Of a DNA stretch of 50,219 nucleotides, positions 1 through 46,951 are shown in pieces (the first letter of the stretch is position 1; every line of letters begins with the position of its first letter). Origin of the DNA: Shigella phage phi2457T; sequence record MH917278; one strand, 5' to 3'. The notes under the pieces were generated by a model, which saw nothing but the letters and a program-made list of their open reading frames with translations, had not been told where the DNA came from and made no database searches. Made by a program: the position numbers and the translations under genes.

Positions 1-101
1 GTTGCATGGTGTGCAACTGTTGATGTGATTTTTGCTTAGAATGCAATGATTGTGAGAGGGAGGATTTAGTGTTACCCGGTTCGCCTGGTGGTCATCTCCA
101 T

Positions 102-120
102 TTTTAGCAAAACGTGCTAT
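102..120 (-). promoter_or_regulatory. conserved intergenic element copy (reverse orientation), ATAGCAC-N5-TTGCTAAAA
   Basis: Plus strand reads ttttagcaaaacgtgctat, reverse complement ATAGCACGTTTTGCTAAAA; matches the consensus repeated throughout the window. Confidence 0.4.
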
Positions 121-206
121 CGATTACACTTTAACTTGTCACGACTGTAATATTTGTCTAGAATCGCACTTGTGACAAAATTACGCACTGTGACGCATCA
201 CAATAG

Positions 207-285
207 ACATATAGATATATGTATATATATAATATATATAGTGTTTTTTTTATTTATATATATAGATAATCATATTGTAATAGTT
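207..285. repeat. AT-rich tract with TATATAGATAAT motif (shared with 30996-31057)
   Basis: Near pure A/T run atatagatatatgtatatatataatatatata...atatatagataatcatattg in noncoding left end. Confidence 0.5.
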
Positions 286-436
286 GTGTATAGCCGTCTT
301 ACATTGTCTAGCGTACTGTTGGCATATTTCTACCTGCATGTTTATATATACAGTACTTTTTTGAGGGCTATATATTTCTATAGTGACTCTAGACAGCTAG
401 ACAAATATTACACGGCTTAAAATTGGCTTGCAGTCG

Positions 437-465
437 TTGACAGCTCTACGTCGCTCTGTCACAAT
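437..465 (+). promoter_or_regulatory. candidate sigma70-type promoter upstream of first ORF
   Basis: Perfect TTGACA at 437-442, 17-bp spacer, TGtCACAAT extended -10-like at 457-465; by eye only. Confidence 0.35.
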
Positions 466-1039: not shown

Positions 1040-1053
1040 CGCCGATAGGTGAA

Positions 1054-1071
1054 ATAGCACTTTTTGTTAAA
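1054..1071 (+). promoter_or_regulatory. conserved intergenic element copy
   Basis: atagcactttttgttaaa immediately after stop of 524..1039. Confidence 0.45.
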
Positions 1072-2626: not shown

Positions 2627-2818
2627 ATGGCTGATTTTATGCACCAAATGATTGCAGTATTCAAAGGTAGCGAAGATGAGGAAGTAAAGGAATGCTTTAC
2701 CTTCAACAAGTCTTATAGCGCGTCGCTAACCAGCTTCGGGAACATCTCATTGCTTGATGATAATGGCGACCCCTGGATATTCGACGAAGATACTGATTGC
2801 TTCGAAATTAAAGAATAG
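2627..2818 (+). CDS. hypothetical acidic protein (63 aa)
   Basis: ORF track; stop TAG lies in the conserved element at 2815. Confidence 0.45.
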   Translation: MADFMHQMIAVFKGSEDEEVKECFTFNKSYSASLTSFGNISLLDDNGDPWIFDEDTDCFEIKE

Positions 2819-2834
2819 CACTTTTTGTTAAAAC
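2815..2834 (+). promoter_or_regulatory. conserved intergenic element copy
   Basis: atagcactttttgttaaaac, hairpin ggggtt/aacccc with gatatagt in loop. Confidence 0.5.
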
Positions 2835-35499: not shown

Positions 35500-35526
35500 C
35501 AATAAAAAACCGCCCGAAGGCGGTTA
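35500..35526 (-). terminator. rho-independent terminator (minus strand)
   Basis: Hairpin accgcccgaaggcggt with A6 on plus strand (T6 on minus) after the primase-like gene. Confidence 0.6.
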
Positions 35527-36459
35527 GAGTAGGTCACTTGCTGAGAATAACTTAGCTTGCATTCCTGAACGGTATCCTCCAGGATTCGGGATGATTATTT
35601 TTAATTGCCGGTCGTCAGCCATGTATAAAGTATCCTTATCTGAAGGTTCGCACGCCACTCTTACCTCGCGATCTCCTTTGTATCTGTACGCAACCATTTC
35701 GAGATTTTCAGGAGTGAAGCAGGCCCACACCTCTTGCTTTGTGTGAAATGCAATATGCTGAGCATCAATCCAATTAAGGCATAAGTAGATCGCTTTTTCA
35801 GTTTTACCAGTCACAGCAACCGAGCAACTTGTGTATTTCTTAGCGTAAAATGACTCCCTTCCTTCCTCGTCAATAATCAAAATATTGCAAAACTCGTCAT
35901 CAAGCCCGTCCTCATGCACAAGTTGACACGGGATAGTGTGAAATACGCTCTCCCCGCCATCGTCGCGACGTTTTACGCCAACGTCGAATGATTCAGTAGG
36001 TAGCGATTCAAACATGCTTAGAGGCGTCTTTACGCGCTTCTCTGTGCGCTCCATGACTTTCATCACCGCTTCATGATCTGCCATCATGACATTGACACCA
36101 GATACCGGAGTTCGGCGCGCTTTCTTGTTTGCCTTGACGATGTATTCCTGCGGAACTTTTCCGAGAAATCTTCCCAATATATTTATGCATTCGCTATACG
36201 GCATACCAGTTAATTTCATCAACCAACCGATCCCGGAGTCGTTACCGCATGAGTTGCAGATTGCACCGCCGTCTCCTGGGGTATTCAGGTTGTCGGTCCA
36301 GCGAAAACGGTCTTTACCTCCACAGTTGGGGCAAGGTTGGTGCTTCTTGTTGAATACCTCGTTAGGCAATCCGCAGACTGACTGAAAAGCCTCACGCCAT
36401 AACCCCTTCATATACGGCAAGACGTCCTCTTTCTGAAACATCATAAACTCTTCGTTCAC
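35524..36459 (-). CDS. putative DNA primase (zinc-binding N-terminal domain)
   Basis: 311 aa; CPNCGGKDRF...CNSCGN zinc-ribbon near N-terminus; adjacent to helicase gene. Confidence 0.45.
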   Translation of the reverse strand: MNEEFMMFQKEDVLPYMKGLWREAFQSVCGLPNEVFNKKHQPCPNCGGKDRFRWTDNLNTPGDGGAICNSCGNDSGIGWLMKLTGMPYSECINILGRFLGKVPQEYIVKANKKARRTPVSGVNVMMADHEAVMKVMERTEKRVKTPLSMFESLPTESFDVGVKRRDDGGESVFHTIPCQLVHEDGLDDEFCNILIIDEEGRESFYAKKYTSCSVAVTGKTEKAIYLCLNWIDAQHIAFHTKQEVWACFTPENLEMVAYRYKGDREVRVACEPSDKDTLYMADDRQLKIIIPNPGGYRSGMQAKLFSASDLL

Positions 36460-37066: not shown

Positions 37067-39085
37067 GTGACAATTAACATCAAAAAGCAAATCGCATTAC
37101 TTGGCGAGGACTATATAAAACGCACTCAAGAACGATTCACTGTTGGTGAGGTCGTTCCGTATCCGTACCAGGTTGTTGCTTATGCTGAGATCGCAAAACG
37201 CCTATCAAATTATGAGCATCCATTCTTTGTTAAAGCGTCAGTATCGGCGGGTAAGACCATCATTTTTGCTATGGTTGCAAAGCAGTGTCAAAAAATGGGC
37301 TTGAAAATGCTTGTGCTGGCACGCCAGGGTGAGATTGTCGATCAGGATAGTGAAGAGATCGACAATTTCGGGGTGACTAACTCTATATTCTCAGCGTCAC
37401 TTGGAATCAAGTCTTGCTACTTCCCGATCGTGGTAGGCTCTGAGGGTACTGTTGCAAATGGTTTAAATAATGAGCTAGCTGATTTTGTCCCTCACGTAAT
37501 CGGGATAGATGAATGTCACCAGGTGGATTGGGAAGACCTTGCACAAGCCATAGATGGCAAGGAAACGATGGAACAGATGCGGGAAGAGAAGGGAAAAATC
37601 ATTATGAATGGGGAGGTTCCTCTGATTGGTAATGATGGGAAGCCTCTACTTGGAACTAAGCGAAGCCAATACACGATCGTAATCATGGAAATGATGCGCC
37701 GCTGCAAAGAAACTCACGGTCACGACCTCAGAATATTTGGTATGACTGGATCTGAATTTCGTGGCGTAGTTCCTATTCTTGTTGAGAATCCAAAGGCGTT
37801 AGGCTTCTGGCGTGAGCGCGTTACTGATATAGACACCAACTACCTTATTGAGTTTGGCTCAGTTGTTCCTACTATATTCGGCTCGACGGACGGAGTTCAC
37901 TACGATCTTGATAAATTTAAGGCATCAAGCGAGGATGGGGTACAGGACTTTACAGAGAAAGATATGAAGGCAATGGAAGATGAGATCCTTCATGATAAAT
38001 CTCTTACTCAGCGAATCATGCAAATGGTTGCTAAAAAGGCTGAAGAGCGTAACGCAGTCCTGATTACATGCGCTGGGGTGCGTCACTGCAAAGAGGCGGC
38101 AGCGGCACTACCGCCTGGAAGCACATATGCAATTATTACTGGCGACACAGACACTAAAACGCGCAAGAAGATTCTTGATGATGTGAGGGCAGGGAAAATT
38201 AAATACACCTTTCAGGTCATGGCGCTAACTACTGGCGTTAACGTTCCAAACTGGGATTTCAGTGTAATACTTCGCAAGATAGGATCTCTCACCTTGCTGA
38301 TTCAGCTTTTGGGTAGGGGTATGCGACTTCTTAAATCATGGCAGGTTGCTGAAGGGATGGTTAAGCAAGACCATCTTGTATGGGATTTCGCAGGCACGAT
38401 GGATGAGTTGGGGCAGCTTTATTTCGATCCTATACTTGAGCAGGCTCAGTTCCAGAAGCGATTTGAGAACGGAAAAGACCCGAAAAAGTGTCCGAAATGT
38501 GGTTGCGTAAATAGCTTCTACGCTCGCCGATGCGTTAACGTTATCGACGGTGAACGCTGCGATCATTTCTGGACTTCTCAGATTTGCGAGGACCAGGTTG
38601 ATGAACGTACCGGGAAAATTCTTGTTAAAGGGTGCGGTGCCGAGAATGACGTTGTTGCCCGAGTCTGTCGCTGTTGCGATGTTTCTCTTGTTGATCCTAA
38701 CCTTAAGTTATCCGGTAAGGCGTACACTAAGAATGACTGGTACGAGGTCAAGAATTTTGAAGTTACGTTAACCAAAAACCAAAATGGTGTGATATACAAA
38801 TACACACTTATTAACGACGATGGTGATGAGTTCAAGGCGTATGAAAAATTCTTCCCTGAGTCAGACTCTAAGATTTGCGGTACGCTATGGAAAACGAAAG
38901 GAGTATTACCTCACGTATCAGATCCTAAAATGCGTCGCTACTTTATCGGAATGAAGAACGCTATCAAGATCGTGCAATACGCTCATCATATAGCGCATCC
39001 GGTACGCGTTACTCATAGACGCAACCAGAAGAAAGAAGATATTATTTCACGCAAAGATTTCGGTATGGAGGATATCCCGGAATGA
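37067..39085 (+). CDS. superfamily-2 DNA helicase
   Basis: 672 aa; Walker A SAGKT, DEAH-type motif IGIDECHQV, Cys-rich zinc-ribbon near C-terminus; GTG start inferred from ORF track. Confidence 0.75.
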   Translation: MTINIKKQIALLGEDYIKRTQERFTVGEVVPYPYQVVAYAEIAKRLSNYEHPFFVKASVSAGKTIIFAMVAKQCQKMGLKMLVLARQGEIVDQDSEEIDNFGVTNSIFSASLGIKSCYFPIVVGSEGTVANGLNNELADFVPHVIGIDECHQVDWEDLAQAIDGKETMEQMREEKGKIIMNGEVPLIGNDGKPLLGTKRSQYTIVIMEMMRRCKETHGHDLRIFGMTGSEFRGVVPILVENPKALGFWRERVTDIDTNYLIEFGSVVPTIFGSTDGVHYDLDKFKASSEDGVQDFTEKDMKAMEDEILHDKSLTQRIMQMVAKKAEERNAVLITCAGVRHCKEAAAALPPGSTYAIITGDTDTKTRKKILDDVRAGKIKYTFQVMALTTGVNVPNWDFSVILRKIGSLTLLIQLLGRGMRLLKSWQVAEGMVKQDHLVWDFAGTMDELGQLYFDPILEQAQFQKRFENGKDPKKCPKCGCVNSFYARRCVNVIDGERCDHFWTSQICEDQVDERTGKILVKGCGAENDVVARVCRCCDVSLVDPNLKLSGKAYTKNDWYEVKNFEVTLTKNQNGVIYKYTLINDDGDEFKAYEKFFPESDSKICGTLWKTKGVLPHVSDPKMRRYFIGMKNAIKIVQYAHHIAHPVRVTHRRNQKKEDIISRKDFGMEDIPE

Positions 39086-39498
39086 TTACAGATAAAGGCG
39101 ATTACTTAGAGTTTTACGAGCGAGATCCTAGCGACACGCGAAAGGAGGACGCTCATCAAGTAGACTGCGTGTCCTGGTTGAAATACAATTTTCCTCAGCT
39201 TCTATTTTGGCACACAGTTAACGAAGGTGAAAAAACAATCACTTCGGCACTTAGGGATGAGCAGGCTGGATTACTTAAAGGCGTATCAGACTTTGTTATT
39301 CTGATTGGTATAAACTCACGTTACCCGTTCGCAGCTATCGAACTCAAGCGGGTTAATAAGTCCGGCAAAGGAAAGGCATCACCAGTCAGCGATAAGCAAA
39401 GGGAGTTTCTCAAAAAGGTTCGGGATCGCGGTGGATTCTCTGCCGTTGCATACGGATTTGAGCAATTCAAGCTGGCAATATACGATTTAACGAAATAG
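39082..39498 (+). CDS. VRR-NUC domain nuclease (putative)
   Basis: 138 aa; ...AAIELKRVNKSGKGKASPVSDKQREFLKKVRDRGGFSAVAYG resembles VRR-NUC; ATGA overlap with helicase. Confidence 0.5.
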   Translation: MITDKGDYLEFYERDPSDTRKEDAHQVDCVSWLKYNFPQLLFWHTVNEGEKTITSALRDEQAGLLKGVSDFVILIGINSRYPFAAIELKRVNKSGKGKASPVSDKQREFLKKVRDRGGFSAVAYGFEQFKLAIYDLTK

Positions 39499-39513
39499 CA
39501 CTTTTTGCTAAAC
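39495..39513 (+). promoter_or_regulatory. conserved intergenic element copy
   Basis: atagcactttttgctaaac then hairpin and leader caccgaaacgagagga. Confidence 0.5.
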
Positions 39514-41363: not shown

Positions 41364-42515
41364 ATGTCACAAGCTAAAATCACTACCGAGCAACTTATCG
41401 AAGAGCGCATGAGCGGCCTTACACTTCGCGAGATCGCGGAAAAGTACGGTATGCACATCCGCACAGTTGAAGCGCGTCACGCCAAACTTGCAAAAGAAGG
41501 TCACTTCCACGGTAACGAGCATGTTGCTAAGAACGTACCGGAAGGATTCATGGTAAAAGGAACATCAACGATGATTCGCGGCGATGGGACCGAGGTAGTG
41601 CGATGGGTTAAGACCGATCAGGACCGAGAGAAGATTGCTGCAATGATGGAAGCAGCGCGTATTGCATTCTGTGAAGACTTGCCGCGAGCAAAACCAACCG
41701 AGCTACTCACCTCGCAAGGGCTTACAACCGCTATTGGCAAGCTGGCACTCTACCCGGTGTTCGATCTTCACATTGGCGCGCTTGCTCACAAGCATGAATG
41801 CGGAGAGAACTACTCTACAGACGTAGCGGAAAAAGTGCTGAATGACTTCTTTAACTACGCGATCGATATTGCCCCGAACGCAGAGAAGGCTGTTCTGTTA
41901 ATCGGAGGCGACTTCCTTCACTCAGACGGTCTTGATGCTGTTACCCCGGCAAGTGGTCACGTTCTGGATCAGGATTCACGATATGCGAAATTGGTGCATG
42001 TGGCTATTCGATCGGTGCGACGAGCTATCGACAAAATGCTGACTAAACACAAAGAGGTCGAAGTTCAGGTTATCGAAGGGAACCACGACCAGGCCGGAAT
42101 GATTTGGCTACGCGCTGCAATGGCTGCATACTATGAGGACGAGCCGCGAGTATTCGTTGACGTTAGTCCTATGATTCTGCATAAGACCCGCTGGGGAAAT
42201 ACCTTGTTGGGATACACTCACGGTCACACGATGAAAAAGGCAGACACGCGACTTGCAGCGATGGCAGCAGATTTCCGCGCAGATTTTGGTGAAAGCAAAT
42301 ACGTGTACACGCATAGCGGACACTGGCATCATCAGACAATTACTGAACACTCGTTAGGTATTGATGAAGTGCACGGTCAGTTAGGCGCGAAGGATGCATA
42401 CGCAGCACGCGGAGGGTGGCGCTCATATCGCCAGGCGGCGGTAATTGTTTACGATAAGCAATTTGGGGAAATCGGTCGTTTCATCTATCGTCCAGAAATG
42501 ACAGGATCGCACTAA
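41364..42515 (+). CDS. metallophosphoesterase-family protein with N-terminal HTH domain
   Basis: N-terminus LTLREIAEKYGMHIRTVEARH (HTH-like); phosphoesterase motifs DLHIGALAH, GGDFLHSDG, EGNHD (GNHD as in Mre11/SbcD-type enzymes). Confidence 0.5.
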   Translation: MSQAKITTEQLIEERMSGLTLREIAEKYGMHIRTVEARHAKLAKEGHFHGNEHVAKNVPEGFMVKGTSTMIRGDGTEVVRWVKTDQDREKIAAMMEAARIAFCEDLPRAKPTELLTSQGLTTAIGKLALYPVFDLHIGALAHKHECGENYSTDVAEKVLNDFFNYAIDIAPNAEKAVLLIGGDFLHSDGLDAVTPASGHVLDQDSRYAKLVHVAIRSVRRAIDKMLTKHKEVEVQVIEGNHDQAGMIWLRAAMAAYYEDEPRVFVDVSPMILHKTRWGNTLLGYTHGHTMKKADTRLAAMAADFRADFGESKYVYTHSGHWHHQTITEHSLGIDEVHGQLGAKDAYAARGGWRSYRQAAVIVYDKQFGEIGRFIYRPEMTGSH

Positions 42516-43577: not shown

Positions 43578-43978
43578 TGAAACTGAAGAAAACGTGCATT
43601 GCGATTGCAGTGGCTGTTGGTGTTATTTCTCTATCCGGTTGCTCGACGGCATCTGCTCTGAGCGGTTTACTTTCTGACTCCCCGGATGTTACTGCGCAGG
43701 TTGGCGCTGAGAACACTAAGCAACTGGCGGGAGTTACTGCAAAGGCCGACGATAAGCGAGAAGTGAAGGTGAGTGATTCAAATATTGGCAAGATTGACTC
43801 ATCCGTCAAGAAGTCTGTGGAAGTGTCAACCATTCAGGCTAACACGGTTAACGCTGAAAGCATCACGGTAACAAAACCGGGGAACTGGTACGATGCAATT
43901 GTAGGGTGGACTCTCGTTTTTATTGGCCTGTTGATGATTTATTTTTCACTTCGTAAGAACGGAAAAAAGGAGGCTTAG
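43574..43978 (+). CDS. unimolecular spanin (u-spanin, T1 gp11-like)
   Basis: N-terminal lipoprotein signal with lipobox LSGC plus C-terminal [16 protein letters not shown] in the same polypeptide; last gene of lysis cassette. Confidence 0.7.
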
Positions 43979-43993
43979 CCTCCTTTTCTTTTA
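43962..43993. terminator. bidirectional terminator
   Basis: Hairpin aaggaggcttagcctcctt flanked by A-run and T-rich run between convergent genes. Confidence 0.6.
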
Positions 43994-44270: not shown

Positions 44271-44288
44271 TTAACAAAAAGTGCTATT
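44271..44288 (-). promoter_or_regulatory. conserved intergenic element copy (minus orientation)
   Basis: Plus strand ttaacaaaaagtgctatt = reverse complement AATAGCACTTTTTGTTAA. Confidence 0.5.
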
Positions 44289-44395: not shown

Positions 44396-44803
44396 TCAAA
44401 TTCTTCTTTCGTAAGCTGGAGCCTTGCGCACAATTCGACGTTCCGATCTATCAATGTTTCTACGTTCGCCAAACAAATCTTCATCACTCATCTCTCCAAT
44501 GTGCATCATTTCCCACGTATACCGATTGTTGTAGCCATCAATACACATCAGCTTCATCATTACCGGGCGCTTAATCTTTCCCTTGCACCAGTAAACTCCA
44601 TCCTTGCGATCTAAGTAACCCTCAGTCACGCAACGAGCGCAAAACTCCTTAGATAGCGCGCTTGTAAATTCACGGCGAGTCATTCCAGCAGCCTTAGCAA
44701 AACGCTCACTTTCCTTGTGGGCGTATATAAATTTCGCTATGTGCTGTCGAGTGTATTTGTCGTAACCTTCGCAGAACCTGAACAGATCTAAAAGAAGAAG
44801 CAT
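44396..44803 (-). CDS. hypothetical Cys-containing protein (135 aa)
   Basis: ORF track; translationally coupled to upstream gene; several Cys (CARCV, WCKG, MCIDG). Confidence 0.4.
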   Translation of the reverse strand: MLLLLDLFRFCEGYDKYTRQHIAKFIYAHKESERFAKAAGMTRREFTSALSKEFCARCVTEGYLDRKDGVYWCKGKIKRPVMMKLMCIDGYNNRYTWEMMHIGEMSDEDLFGERRNIDRSERRIVRKAPAYERRI

Positions 44804-44807
44804 ATTA

Positions 44808-46376
44808 TTAACCCATCAGTCGAGGATTGATGAAAACAATATCATCAATGCGGCAAGTGTAGTTCATCTCTTCGAGCGTGATCAGCAGGCTATCTATTCT
44901 CTCAGATACTTTCTGTTGACCGTTGAACGGAGTAACGTTCCGGCACTTTGCAACGATGCTATGAATAGGAGCGCGCCCTTTATTCTTCTTTGCGATCTCA
45001 GTGATAACATCAATCAGCTTACGAGATTCAGCCTCATCACCAGCATACCCGGCAGCGCTGGCAGACGACAGATAAGTCCTGGAAAGCTCATTGAAGATCA
45101 TGATTGCTTCCTGCATCGTTTCAAGGTCAATCTCACGGTTGGAACGGTTCGGTGATTCACCCTCCCAATTCTTGATCGTGTGGAGAACTGAAGCAATACG
45201 CAAGGCGTGCTTATCGAACTTTCCGAGATGACCGCGTAGCATTGAGTGAGAGTATTTCCCACCTGCGGCGAAATCCGGCTCCATCGCCTGACGCGCAAGG
45301 TTTAATTCACGCATAGCATTACGACTTACAGAAAGAACAACGTTTTCCTCCTTCATAATGTTGTGCACGAGTCGATAATATTTACTCACCAATCCTCGAT
45401 CTACTTCCTTATACAGTGCATCACCATTTTCATCGCAAAGGATACGAGTACCTAAAAGAGGTTCCTCACGAACAAGAAGGAAGCGCTCAGATACGCCGAT
45501 GCCTCGTTGGCCTGCGTCCATGATACCCTTGATTGTTTCATCCTGCGCAATAACGCAGATGGAACCGACCGGGCAAAGGGACAAGTTGTTATCCTGGTTG
45601 GAACGCGCCACCTCCATATGGTTTTTATCCCACGCCTTAAGGATAAGCTCACTATTTGATTTCTTGTCTGAACCCCCATAAGTCAGGCCGAGCAATGTAT
45701 TGATTGCTGTCGCCTCATCAGAGATTACGGAGAAATGACCTTGAACAGCAGCTACTTTCGCTAGACCTTCTGGTGTAGGATCTGATACCGCGAAAACAAT
45801 ATCAGCCATCTTCTTGATTTTCTCTTCCAGTTTTTCTTTGTCCTCGTATAGCGCTGCCGTCGTGTTACCCTTCGGGTCGTTCTTAATTTCCTTCTCGACC
45901 TGACGTAGCTGACTGGTTAAACGGATACGTTCCTTTTTTCGCTCTTCATTCAGTCGCTGAATCTCTGCGCGCATAGGCGTAATCGCTGCGGAGTTAATCG
46001 CAGATTTACCTGTTGACGGTGGCTGGCTGATTACCATGTAAAGAGCGGTTGGTTGTTCTTCTCCGTGATATTGCACCCAAAACTTCCCGAGCATCGCGGC
46101 TGAGATGCACCCAATGAAATGAGCGTACGCAGACGAAACAGGGAACTGTACAGACTCGGCCTTTGCTTTTGCATATTCGAATACCAGGTTATCGCCACCT
46201 AACGAAATCAGAGGGAACTTATCGTTGCCGCTATTGATATCGATCGGATCTTGCCAAAATGAAACTGAGTCACCATAGCTGTTTTCACGAATTGCGATCG
46301 CCACCGGATTAACTCCAGTACTATTGGCGATCTCAATAATCTGTTGGTAATTCAGTTTTGGCTTAATATTAAACAT
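44808..46376 (-). CDS. large early protein with P-loop-like motif and central coiled coil (function unknown)
   Basis: Internal ATG (MFNIKPK) with SD aaggag; PPSTGKSA motif; Lys/Glu-rich coiled-coil segment; conserved element and hairpin upstream. Confidence 0.5.
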   Translation of the reverse strand: MFNIKPKLNYQQIIEIANSTGVNPVAIAIRENSYGDSVSFWQDPIDINSGNDKFPLISLGGDNLVFEYAKAKAESVQFPVSSAYAHFIGCISAAMLGKFWVQYHGEEQPTALYMVISQPPSTGKSAINSAAITPMRAEIQRLNEERKKERIRLTSQLRQVEKEIKNDPKGNTTAALYEDKEKLEEKIKKMADIVFAVSDPTPEGLAKVAAVQGHFSVISDEATAINTLLGLTYGGSDKKSNSELILKAWDKNHMEVARSNQDNNLSLCPVGSICVIAQDETIKGIMDAGQRGIGVSERFLLVREEPLLGTRILCDENGDALYKEVDRGLVSKYYRLVHNIMKEENVVLSVSRNAMRELNLARQAMEPDFAAGGKYSHSMLRGHLGKFDKHALRIASVLHTIKNWEGESPNRSNREIDLETMQEAIMIFNELSRTYLSSASAAGYAGDEAESRKLIDVITEIAKKNKGRAPIHSIVAKCRNVTPFNGQQKVSERIDSLLITLEEMNYTCRIDDIVFINPRLMG

Positions 46377-46432
46377 CACAATAAACTCCTTAGTTGACGG
46401 TGTAAATGATACACCGACAATGGTACACGCGT

Positions 46433-46450
46433 TTTGCAAAAAGTGCTATT
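46433..46450 (-). promoter_or_regulatory. conserved intergenic element copy (minus orientation)
   Basis: Plus strand tttgcaaaaagtgctatt; hairpin cggtgta/tacaccg lies between it and the gene start. Confidence 0.45.
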
Positions 46451-46452
46451 GG

Positions 46453-46869
46453 TTATAAGTATTTGGCCTCAAAGGTTGTGCCGTCTGCGATACTAAAACC
46501 AACCTCTTCGCGAAATAAGGTCCAGCGACAACCATCTTCATCAAAGATGTAACCAGCTACGCCACCGAGAGCGCGACCGCTTTCAACCTGGTAACGCTTG
46601 CCAACTTTGAATGATTTTTTCATTGGGTTGCGATGGTCAAGCCCGGTGCACTTGAGCGTCTTTGTTTTCAACTCAGTGAACTTCGCGAAGAAGATTTCAT
46701 CAGATCCGTGAATCTGTAATTCATCATGCTTTTCAAGTTTTAAATACTTGCCGCATTTTAACTTGATTTCACGAGTGCCATCATAGCGCTCACGACCTTT
46801 GTATAGGTTGTTTACTTCAAATCCTGTGATTTTATCTGCGTGAGTGCATTTCAGTTTGATGGATTTCAT
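46453..46869 (-). CDS. paralogous-family protein (138 aa)
   Basis: MKSIKLKCTHADKITGFEVNNLYKG matches family motif; conserved leader caagataaccaatcaggag upstream. Confidence 0.45.
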   Translation of the reverse strand: MKSIKLKCTHADKITGFEVNNLYKGRERYDGTREIKLKCGKYLKLEKHDELQIHGSDEIFFAKFTELKTKTLKCTGLDHRNPMKKSFKVGKRYQVESGRALGGVAGYIFDEDGCRWTLFREEVGFSIADGTTFEAKYL

Positions 46870-46931: not shown

Positions 46932-46951
46932 ATTAACAAATCGTGCTATTT
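46932..46951 (-). promoter_or_regulatory. conserved intergenic element copy (minus orientation)
   Basis: Plus strand attaacaaatcgtgctattt; hairpin ggtca/tgacc downstream on minus strand. Confidence 0.45.

Follow-up and report, generated by a model that had tools for sequence, protein, structure and literature searches.

The T1-family DUF3987 protein of Shigella phage phi2457T is a probable ring-shaped replicative helicase

Shigella phage phi2457T is represented by sequence record MH917278, one strand of 50,219 nucleotides (nt) – referred to here as the window – that constitutes a complete or near-complete genome of a Tunavirus (T1-like, Drexlerviridae). Toward its right end lies a leftward gene whose product, a 522-residue protein with an ATPase module of Pfam family DUF3987, had been singled out in an earlier sequence-only reading, made without database searches. 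T1 belongs to the seven classical T phages, its replication machinery was never worked out, and the T1 literature has not placed this protein in its replication model. Here, we describe the gene, its relatives and the predicted structure of its product, and conclude that the protein is probably the phage's own replicative helicase. Pfam, PHROGs, RefSeq and the literature already cover the gene, its family and the function it probably has, and the present work confirms and refines those assignments.

The gene, its family and its relatives

The open reading frame (ORF) ends at 44808 and begins at an ATG at 46376 (Table 1), in agreement with the minus-strand protein of roughly 520 residues described in the sequence-only reading. 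Also as stated there, no protein encoded in the right-hand minus-strand block is larger, every other ORF of the block having 234 residues or fewer. A GTG at 46379, one codon before the ATG, is an equally possible start, and all existing annotations of the gene give the 522-residue product. A 543-residue version starting at a TTG at 46439 was dropped, having no ribosome-binding support, unlike the ATG and GTG behind AGGAG.

Table 1. Coordinates of the helicase gene, the predicted domains and motifs of its product, and associated features of the window
Feature	Residues	Coordinates	Strand	Basis or remark
Helicase coding sequence, DUF3987/MCM-like AAA+	522	44808..46376	-	ORF list, Pfam, PHROGs, RefSeq
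Shine-Dalgarno AGGAG		46386..46390	-	9 nt upstream of ATG 46376, 6 nt of GTG 46379
N-terminal helical domain	1-95	46092..46376	-	Model secondary structure
Alpha/beta ATPase core	about 96-305			Model
Walker A/P-loop QPPSTGKS	118-125	46002..46025	-	Alignment; K124 invariant
Helical hairpin arm	137-189	45810..45968	-	Model
Beta-3 and Walker B SVISDE	216-221	45714..45731	-	Alignment and model; E221 invariant
Beta-hairpin before sensor-1 strand, R258	254-267	45576..45617	-	Model and alignment
Beta-4 with sensor-1 position, CVIAQDE	274-280	45537..45557	-	Model; Q278 136/137
GVSERFLLVRE	294-304	45465..45497	-	R298 137/137, G294 137/137; start of beta-5
AAA+ helical lid with LRGxxGKxD	327-403	45168..45398	-	Model and conservation
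Helical linker	404-444			Model
C-terminal winged-helix domain	about 445-522	44811..45044	-	
ORF following the helicase gene	135	44396..44803	-	PHROG 2794; no hit in Pfam; begins 4 nt past helicase stop; T1 ORF 10
Intergenic direct repeat copy, AATAGCACnnTTTGywAA		46433..46450	-	Between upstream gene's stop and helicase start
Stand-alone DNA primase, T7-gp4-type zinc ribbon		35524..36459	-	Pfam PF08273 E 5.5e-16; RefSeq 'DNA primase'

The right-hand leftward early block begins at about 50.1 kb and ends at a strong bidirectional terminator (43965-43987), where it meets the lysis genes transcribed rightward. The terminator has a perfect 10-bp stem (AAAAGGAGGC/GCCTCCTTTT) and is annotated as such in T1; it excepted, promoter and terminator scans gave counts close to those expected from shuffling and carry no weight here. 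The helicase gene, a short distance upstream of this terminator, is gene 12 of the 14 in the block by the annotation of Shigella phage Sfin-1, and ORF 9 of 10 from the right end in T1. It is promoter-distal in its block unless internal promoters exist, and its proposed location near the start of the early transcript was mistaken, the gene being near the distal end.

The protein matches DUF3987 (PF13148) at 145.7 bits (cut-off 27; E 2.7e-42) over residues 78-432, a match spanning positions 2-355 of the 364 in the profile, and PHROG 2373 'DNA helicase' covers the whole protein (E 4e-234). The family is large: searching 1.84 billion cluster representatives with a profile returned 5718 relatives at E <=0.001. 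DUF3987 was the sole hit in a Pfam scan at E up to 1, with neither MCM (PF00493) nor DnaB_C, and NCBIfam has no family for the helicase, for the primase discussed below or for the two ORFs flanking the helicase gene. Sequence searches of the PDB gave nothing significant with the single protein, a 25-sequence profile or a 60-sequence family profile, an Rfam scan of the whole window gave no match, and no confident homology to a structural or otherwise unrelated protein emerged. Phage DUF3987 proteins have been described as divergent superfamily-6 (SF6) helicases distantly related to MCM, which are often fused or adjacent to AEP or DnaG primases, carry a C-terminal winged helix and are predicted to be replicative; N4 dns, which is essential for replication, is counted among these SF6 helicases (Kazlauskas et al. 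2016, PMC4889955). A 2018 survey of AEP primases lists DUF3987 among helicase-substituting ATPase domains (PMC5862659). The 522-residue protein represents the T1 family within the DUF3987 group, whose members are MCM-like (SF6) AAA+ helicases.

Over approximately 1.6 kb, the gene shares 99.6% DNA identity with Sfin-1 and 94-98% with many Escherichia and Shigella phages; DNA identity within Tunavirus is 94-99.6%, and protein identity across the family is 53-60%. The Drexlerviridae orthologs – including T1 ORF 9 (ST9, YP_003936.1; 44517..46085 in NC_005833), Sfin-1 gp44, those of the BASEL phages and Pantoea phage AAS23 gp49 – are the same gene and differ in nothing substantive. RefSeq labels the orthologs in Sfin-1, ADB-2, SH6 and T1 'DNA helicase', the BASEL records read 'putative helicase', and many GenBank records read 'hypothetical protein'; helicase labels for the gene are also found in papers. 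By tblastn the gene is present in 923 phage records, near full length in 897, and most of these are siphoviruses of 44-52 kb with Klebsiella, Escherichia, Salmonella or Shigella hosts.

Predicted fold and conserved residues

An AlphaFold2 model computed from an alignment of 25 sequences, 35-84% identical to the query, is confident, with a pLDDT (predicted local distance difference test) of 88.8 and a pTM (predicted template modelling score) of 0.87. Alignment and model together show a predicted architecture of N-terminal helical domain, AAA+ core, lid and C-terminal winged helix. The modelled N-terminal domain has neither an OB fold nor a zinc finger, and residues 21-95 are kept as a linker in a DnaG-fused relative (P0159), the alignment with which begins at query residue 21. 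The predicted structure has an MCM-related AAA+ fold: among structural matches, replicative MCMs outscore ComM, and DUF927 proteins score far below MCM. No DnaB or gp4 chain is found among the top matches, and the core is AAA+ rather than the RecA type of superfamily 4 (SF4). In BFVD, a set of predicted viral structures, the matches are DUF3987 proteins, and many of these carry a fused primase-polymerase or Toprim domain. The kinship with MCM rests here on the predicted fold together with the published profile-profile result.

The C-terminal winged helix is also a feature of ORC, Cdc6 and MCM, and T1-like genomes have no other identified initiator candidate. These two points would fit a replication initiator or helicase loader, both of which had been suggested in the sequence-only reading. 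Such a protein would bind the origin through its winged helix and recruit or load host DnaB, as lambda P and DnaC do, and would not itself unwind the fork. The predicted core does not belong to the DnaC/DnaA initiator clade of AAA+ proteins and no homology to lambda P was found; we consider that the protein is distinctly unlikely to act in this way alone.

Conservation was assessed in 137 representatives from a 50%-identity library, mostly less than 50% identical to one another. Six residues are invariant in this set – K124, E221, R258, G294, R298 and K386 – and Q118, P119, T201, E203, Q278, E297, E304 and R311 are nearly so. The P-loop-like PPSTGKSA recognized previously lies at residues 119-126 and, although GK[ST] alone is common, it exceeds chance because K124 is invariant across such diverse proteins; in the model, a strand (113-117) precedes it and a helix begins at residue 122. 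The Walker A motif deviates from GxxxxGK[ST] in beginning with a Gln that is almost invariant (QPPxxGK[ST]). No further motif had been assignable from the letters, whereas Walker B, the sensor-1 position, a candidate arginine finger and the winged helix can all be identified. The Walker B aspartate, D220 (45717-45719), is variable (D in 52, A in 46 and S in 31 of the 137) next to the fixed E221. A D/N-x-T-P-E motif at residues 199-203, after beta-2, is nearly invariant and might be the source of an acidic residue that compensates for the variable D220.

Three further elements can be assigned candidate roles. R258, present in all 137 representatives, lies in a hairpin with strands at 254-256 and 265-267 that is followed in the model by the sensor-1 strand (270-277); by analogy with MCM, this is a candidate DNA-contacting pre-sensor-1 hairpin. 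R298 is a candidate arginine finger, in a motif that resembles LSRFDLIF of Sulfolobus MCM (the sequence of which was checked against PDB 4fdg_B). In the lid, K386 and R381 (the latter present in 97 of the 137) are candidate sensor-2 residues.

Between Walker A and beta-2 is the Lys/Glu-rich segment that had been read as a coiled coil. The charge enrichment is evident, residues 126-190 being 43% charged (K 15%, E 15%, R 9%) vs 25% for the whole protein, but the coiled coil was not confirmed: a simple heptad count over the segment gave no clean register, and the model predicts an intramolecular helical hairpin arm that juts out of the ATPase core. In the model, the Walker A helix has a length of 45 residues (122-166) and is followed by a turn, a return helix of 17 residues (173-189) and then beta-2, with 10-residue block means of pLDDT of 78-95 in the arm helices. 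The distance from K124 to E221 is 97 residues, and it is 90-106 in 100 of the 137 representatives and 54-89 in the other 37. The arm appears to characterize this branch of DUF3987 because the spacing is mostly 90-106, compared with 59 in Sulfolobus MCM (counted on the verified sequence). Its sequence is variable yet Lys/Glu-rich throughout the 25-sequence alignment; partner docking and contact with a neighbouring subunit are guesses as to its role.

Primase partner, role in replication and flanking genes

The genome encodes a primase of 311 residues from the listed GTG start, or 306 from the RefSeq-style start (35524..36444), which has no helicase domain. Also encoded are a Cro-like regulator, Dam, Erf, an exonuclease VIII-like protein and, next to the primase, a superfamily-2 (SF2) helicase (37067..39085) with its coupled VRR-NUC nuclease. 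No DNA polymerase gene is present, and T1 and TLS likewise have no DNA polymerase (2024 TLS re-annotation, PMC11447400). A primase lacking a helicase domain in a genome without a polymerase supports the assignment of the DUF3987 protein as the replicative helicase.

More distant relatives place the two genes closer together. In a 48-kb phage contig (L003) encoding a helicase 35% identical to that of phi2457T, the gene order is DUF3987, small gene, primase, SF2 helicase, exonuclease, ERF and SSB, and the primase is 29% identical to that of phi2457T (E 3e-46). A second relative (L005; helicase 37% identical) has a co-directional array of DUF3987, small gene, 289-residue protein, SF2 helicase, exonuclease and SSB, in which the 289-residue protein resembles the primase over its N-terminal 138 residues, which include the zinc ribbon (28% identity, E 2e-13). 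Elsewhere, primase domains are fused ahead of the DUF3987 module: a DnaG CHC2 zinc finger in the 869-residue P0159, and PriCT_2 in P0242. A match to the NrS-1 polymerase HBD ahead of the module in P0257 is sub-threshold (20.5 bits vs a cut-off of 27.9 bits). P0159, in which one chain holds a DnaG zinc-finger primase and DUF3987, resembles T7 gp4 but has an AAA+ motor; and in P0185 the DnaB N-terminal (primase-binding) domain sits on a DUF3987 AAA+ motor, which replaces the usual RecA-type DnaB motor.

The primase is found in 1369 phage records, compared with 923 for the helicase. Counts of the two are near-equal in phages of Klebsiella, Escherichia, Shigella, Campylobacter and Citrobacter. In Vibrio and Salmonella phages the zinc-ribbon primase occurs in 258 and 153 records, vs 24 and 46 for the DUF3987 helicase, and those phages may pair the same primase with a different helicase. 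We regard the primase as the probable partner of the phi2457T helicase.

Because family, fold, domain fusions and gene neighbourhood converge, the gene product is probably a ring-shaped replicative helicase of the phage's own, a DUF3987 AAA+ (SF6, MCM-like) motor. It would act as a hexamer around single-stranded DNA, with K124 of the P-loop binding ATP, E221 taking part in its hydrolysis and R298 sensing it across the interface between subunits, and with the R258 hairpin drawing DNA through the central channel so that the fork is unwound. The separate helicase and T7-gp4-type primase would form a split primase-helicase feeding host DNA polymerase III, which is presumably used because the phage has no polymerase gene of its own. 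The winged helix may put the ring on the phage origin, and a role as initiator is possible as an added function. As to the replication or takeover roles proposed in the sequence-only reading, the link of a P-loop ATPase to phage DNA replication is retained, and the initiator, the loader and host takeover are not the best fit to the family, fold, fusions and neighbourhood, which point to a ring helicase.

In a different role, the protein would be a ComM- or MCM8/9-like motor for recombination or fork restart that has the Erf, exonuclease VIII and VRR-NUC proteins of the phage as partners and drives branch migration or D-loop extension in the recombination-dependent, concatemer-forming stage of T1 replication, rather than working at the primary fork. 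We consider this unlikely, since the fusions involve primase parts and the primase-binding domain of DnaB and no recombinases, and since replicative MCMs outscore ComM structurally. Furthermore, an SF2 helicase coupled to VRR-NUC is a more typical branch-processing enzyme, and in phi2457T it is more plausibly this pair that processes branched intermediates.

Several considerations weigh against a replicative ring helicase. The fold rests on prediction, because no solved DUF3987 structure is detectable by sequence, and an hhalign comparison of the family profile with Sulfolobus MCM (one sequence) aligned the P-loop only, at a probability of 0.8%, a result that is uninformative with a single-sequence template. 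MCM-like motors also act in recombination (ComM, MCM8/9). The helicase gene is about 8.3 kb from the primase gene, on the same strand, with the SF2 helicase, VRR-NUC, Dam, exonuclease and lysis genes between them, and it is surrounded by small early genes of unknown function. A second helicase, the SF2 protein, adjoins the primase, and the T1 and TLS papers take it to be 'the' replication helicase; in the TLS re-annotation, no replication proteins other than the primase and this SF2 helicase are discussed (PMC11447400). Biochemical tests of DUF3987 proteins were found only for AgaPH (see below) and not for T1-family members. Finally, older physiological work describes T1 DNA synthesis as dependent on some of the host dna genes for elongation; were dnaB one of these, the phage protein could not be the sole fork helicase. 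The literature yielded nothing usable on escape mutations in the helicase gene, on T1 gene 1 and 2 assignments or on the host dna genes that T1 needs.

The small early genes around the helicase gene, and the degradation of host DNA by T1 through an unidentified early function, could also be accommodated by a non-replicative early ATPase acting in host takeover or anti-defence, for example by degrading host DNA or countering immunity. The protein has no nuclease or other effector domain, its single PADLOC match, to an LmuB fragment, is non-significant (E 0.002, 14 bits), and the family, fusion and context evidence is all replicative. Nothing supports the host-takeover ATPase of the sequence-only reading, and a non-replicative function of any kind is very improbable.

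A broader model built on the replicative helicase is tentative, and rather doubtful as a whole: the protein would be the missing core of the T1 replisome, a self-loading MCM-like initiator-helicase that is placed on the origin by its winged helix, docks the T7-type primase through its arm, travels 5'-to-3' on the lagging strand and drives host DNA polymerase III without DnaB or DnaC, and it is possibly the product of the classical 'DNA-negative' gene 1 or 2. If this is true, the T1 replisome is a DnaB/DnaC-independent hybrid in which an archaeal/eukaryotic-type motor is combined with a primase and a polymerase of bacterial type. With ORF 9 taken as a ring helicase, there is a concrete model of the replisome, open to testing, for close to a thousand sequenced phages of the Drexlerviridae, many of them in use for phage therapy of Klebsiella and E. 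coli.

Immediately downstream of the helicase gene is the 135-residue ORF, which is likely to be translationally coupled to it because only 4 nt separate its start from the helicase stop. In L006, a relative with a 45% identical helicase, the helicase gene has a homolog of this ORF behind it (29% identity, E 2e-18), and none is found there in the more distant L003. The 135-residue protein is a possible accessory protein of the helicase system.

Upstream, the intergenic region contains one copy of an 18-nt motif, AATAGCACnnTTTGywAA, that occurs 21 times in the genome, with 0.17 copies expected (examples are at 1053-1070(+), 2814-2831(+), 39494-39511(+), 44271-44288(-), 46433-46450(-) and 46933-46950(-)). 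The copies that were compared with the ORF map are oriented along local transcription and lie at or just past a stop codon, and in the three cases measured they are about 55-65 nt upstream of the next start. The same repeat is known in TLS as a 21-nt intergenic direct repeat with the consensus aaATAGCACnnnTTGnTAAAA, the function of which its authors posed as an open question. There is no array of origin-like iterons in or around the helicase gene, where only scattered short families of 2-3 copies and this known repeat are present. T1 has an HNH endonuclease gene (ST8, 46085-46624) abutting the helicase start; at the same spot phi2457T (46377-46452) and Sfin-1 have a short intergenic region with the direct repeat and no HNH gene, which suggests that the T1 gene is a mobile homing-endonuclease insertion. 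To the left of the block, a 383-residue protein (41364-42515, +) is called 'DNA repair exonuclease' in relatives; metallophosphatase-like motifs (GDFLHSDG, GNHD) are visible by eye, and it has no Pfam match at E up to 0.01.

Comparison with known systems

The closest biochemical precedent is AgaPH, a PriCT-DUF3987 protein from a pAgo-carrying mobile element of Seonamhaeicola sp., described in 2025 as an oligomeric, ATP/dATP-dependent 5'-to-3' helicase (PMC11724360). The phage protein resembles it in the Pfam ATPase module, Walker A and B motifs, small C-terminal domain and, probably, association with a primase. It differs in its N-terminus, which is a different helical domain of 95 residues where AgaPH has PriCT, and in its probable partner, which is of the T7-gp4/DnaG type and encoded 8 kb away, whereas AgaPH has an AEP-type primase-polymerase next door.

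In comparison with MCM (Sulfolobus, Mcm2-7), the phage protein has no Pfam MCM match, no OB-fold/zinc-finger tier and a different Walker A motif (QPPxxGKS vs GDPGxAKS). No helix-2 insert is evident, the model having a single helix (202-212) between the beta-2 region and the strand at 214-219, and the phage arm grows instead from the Walker A helix, before beta-2. The R258 hairpin is alike in occupying the pre-sensor-1 hairpin position with a basic residue, and would bind DNA there. MCM translocates 3'-to-5', and the phage helicase may have the opposite polarity, AgaPH being 5'-to-3'.

T7 gp4 provides the parallel for the partnership, in that a PF08273 zinc-ribbon primase works with a hexameric ring helicase, and some DUF3987 relatives likewise carry primase and motor in one chain. 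However, T7 gp4 joins its primase to a RecA-fold SF4 motor in one polypeptide, whereas the phi2457T motor is predicted to be AAA+ (SF6-like) and is separately encoded; similarly, it lacks the RecA-type core and SF4 motifs of DnaB and the other SF4 helicases. N4 dns differs in having a C-terminal AEP primase domain, and the SaPI Rep/primase-helicase and SCCmec Cch proteins belong to DUF927, another Pfam family that here scores far below MCM. The structure and polarity of a DUF3987 protein would show how an MCM-like motor has been adapted to a bacterial primase and polymerase.

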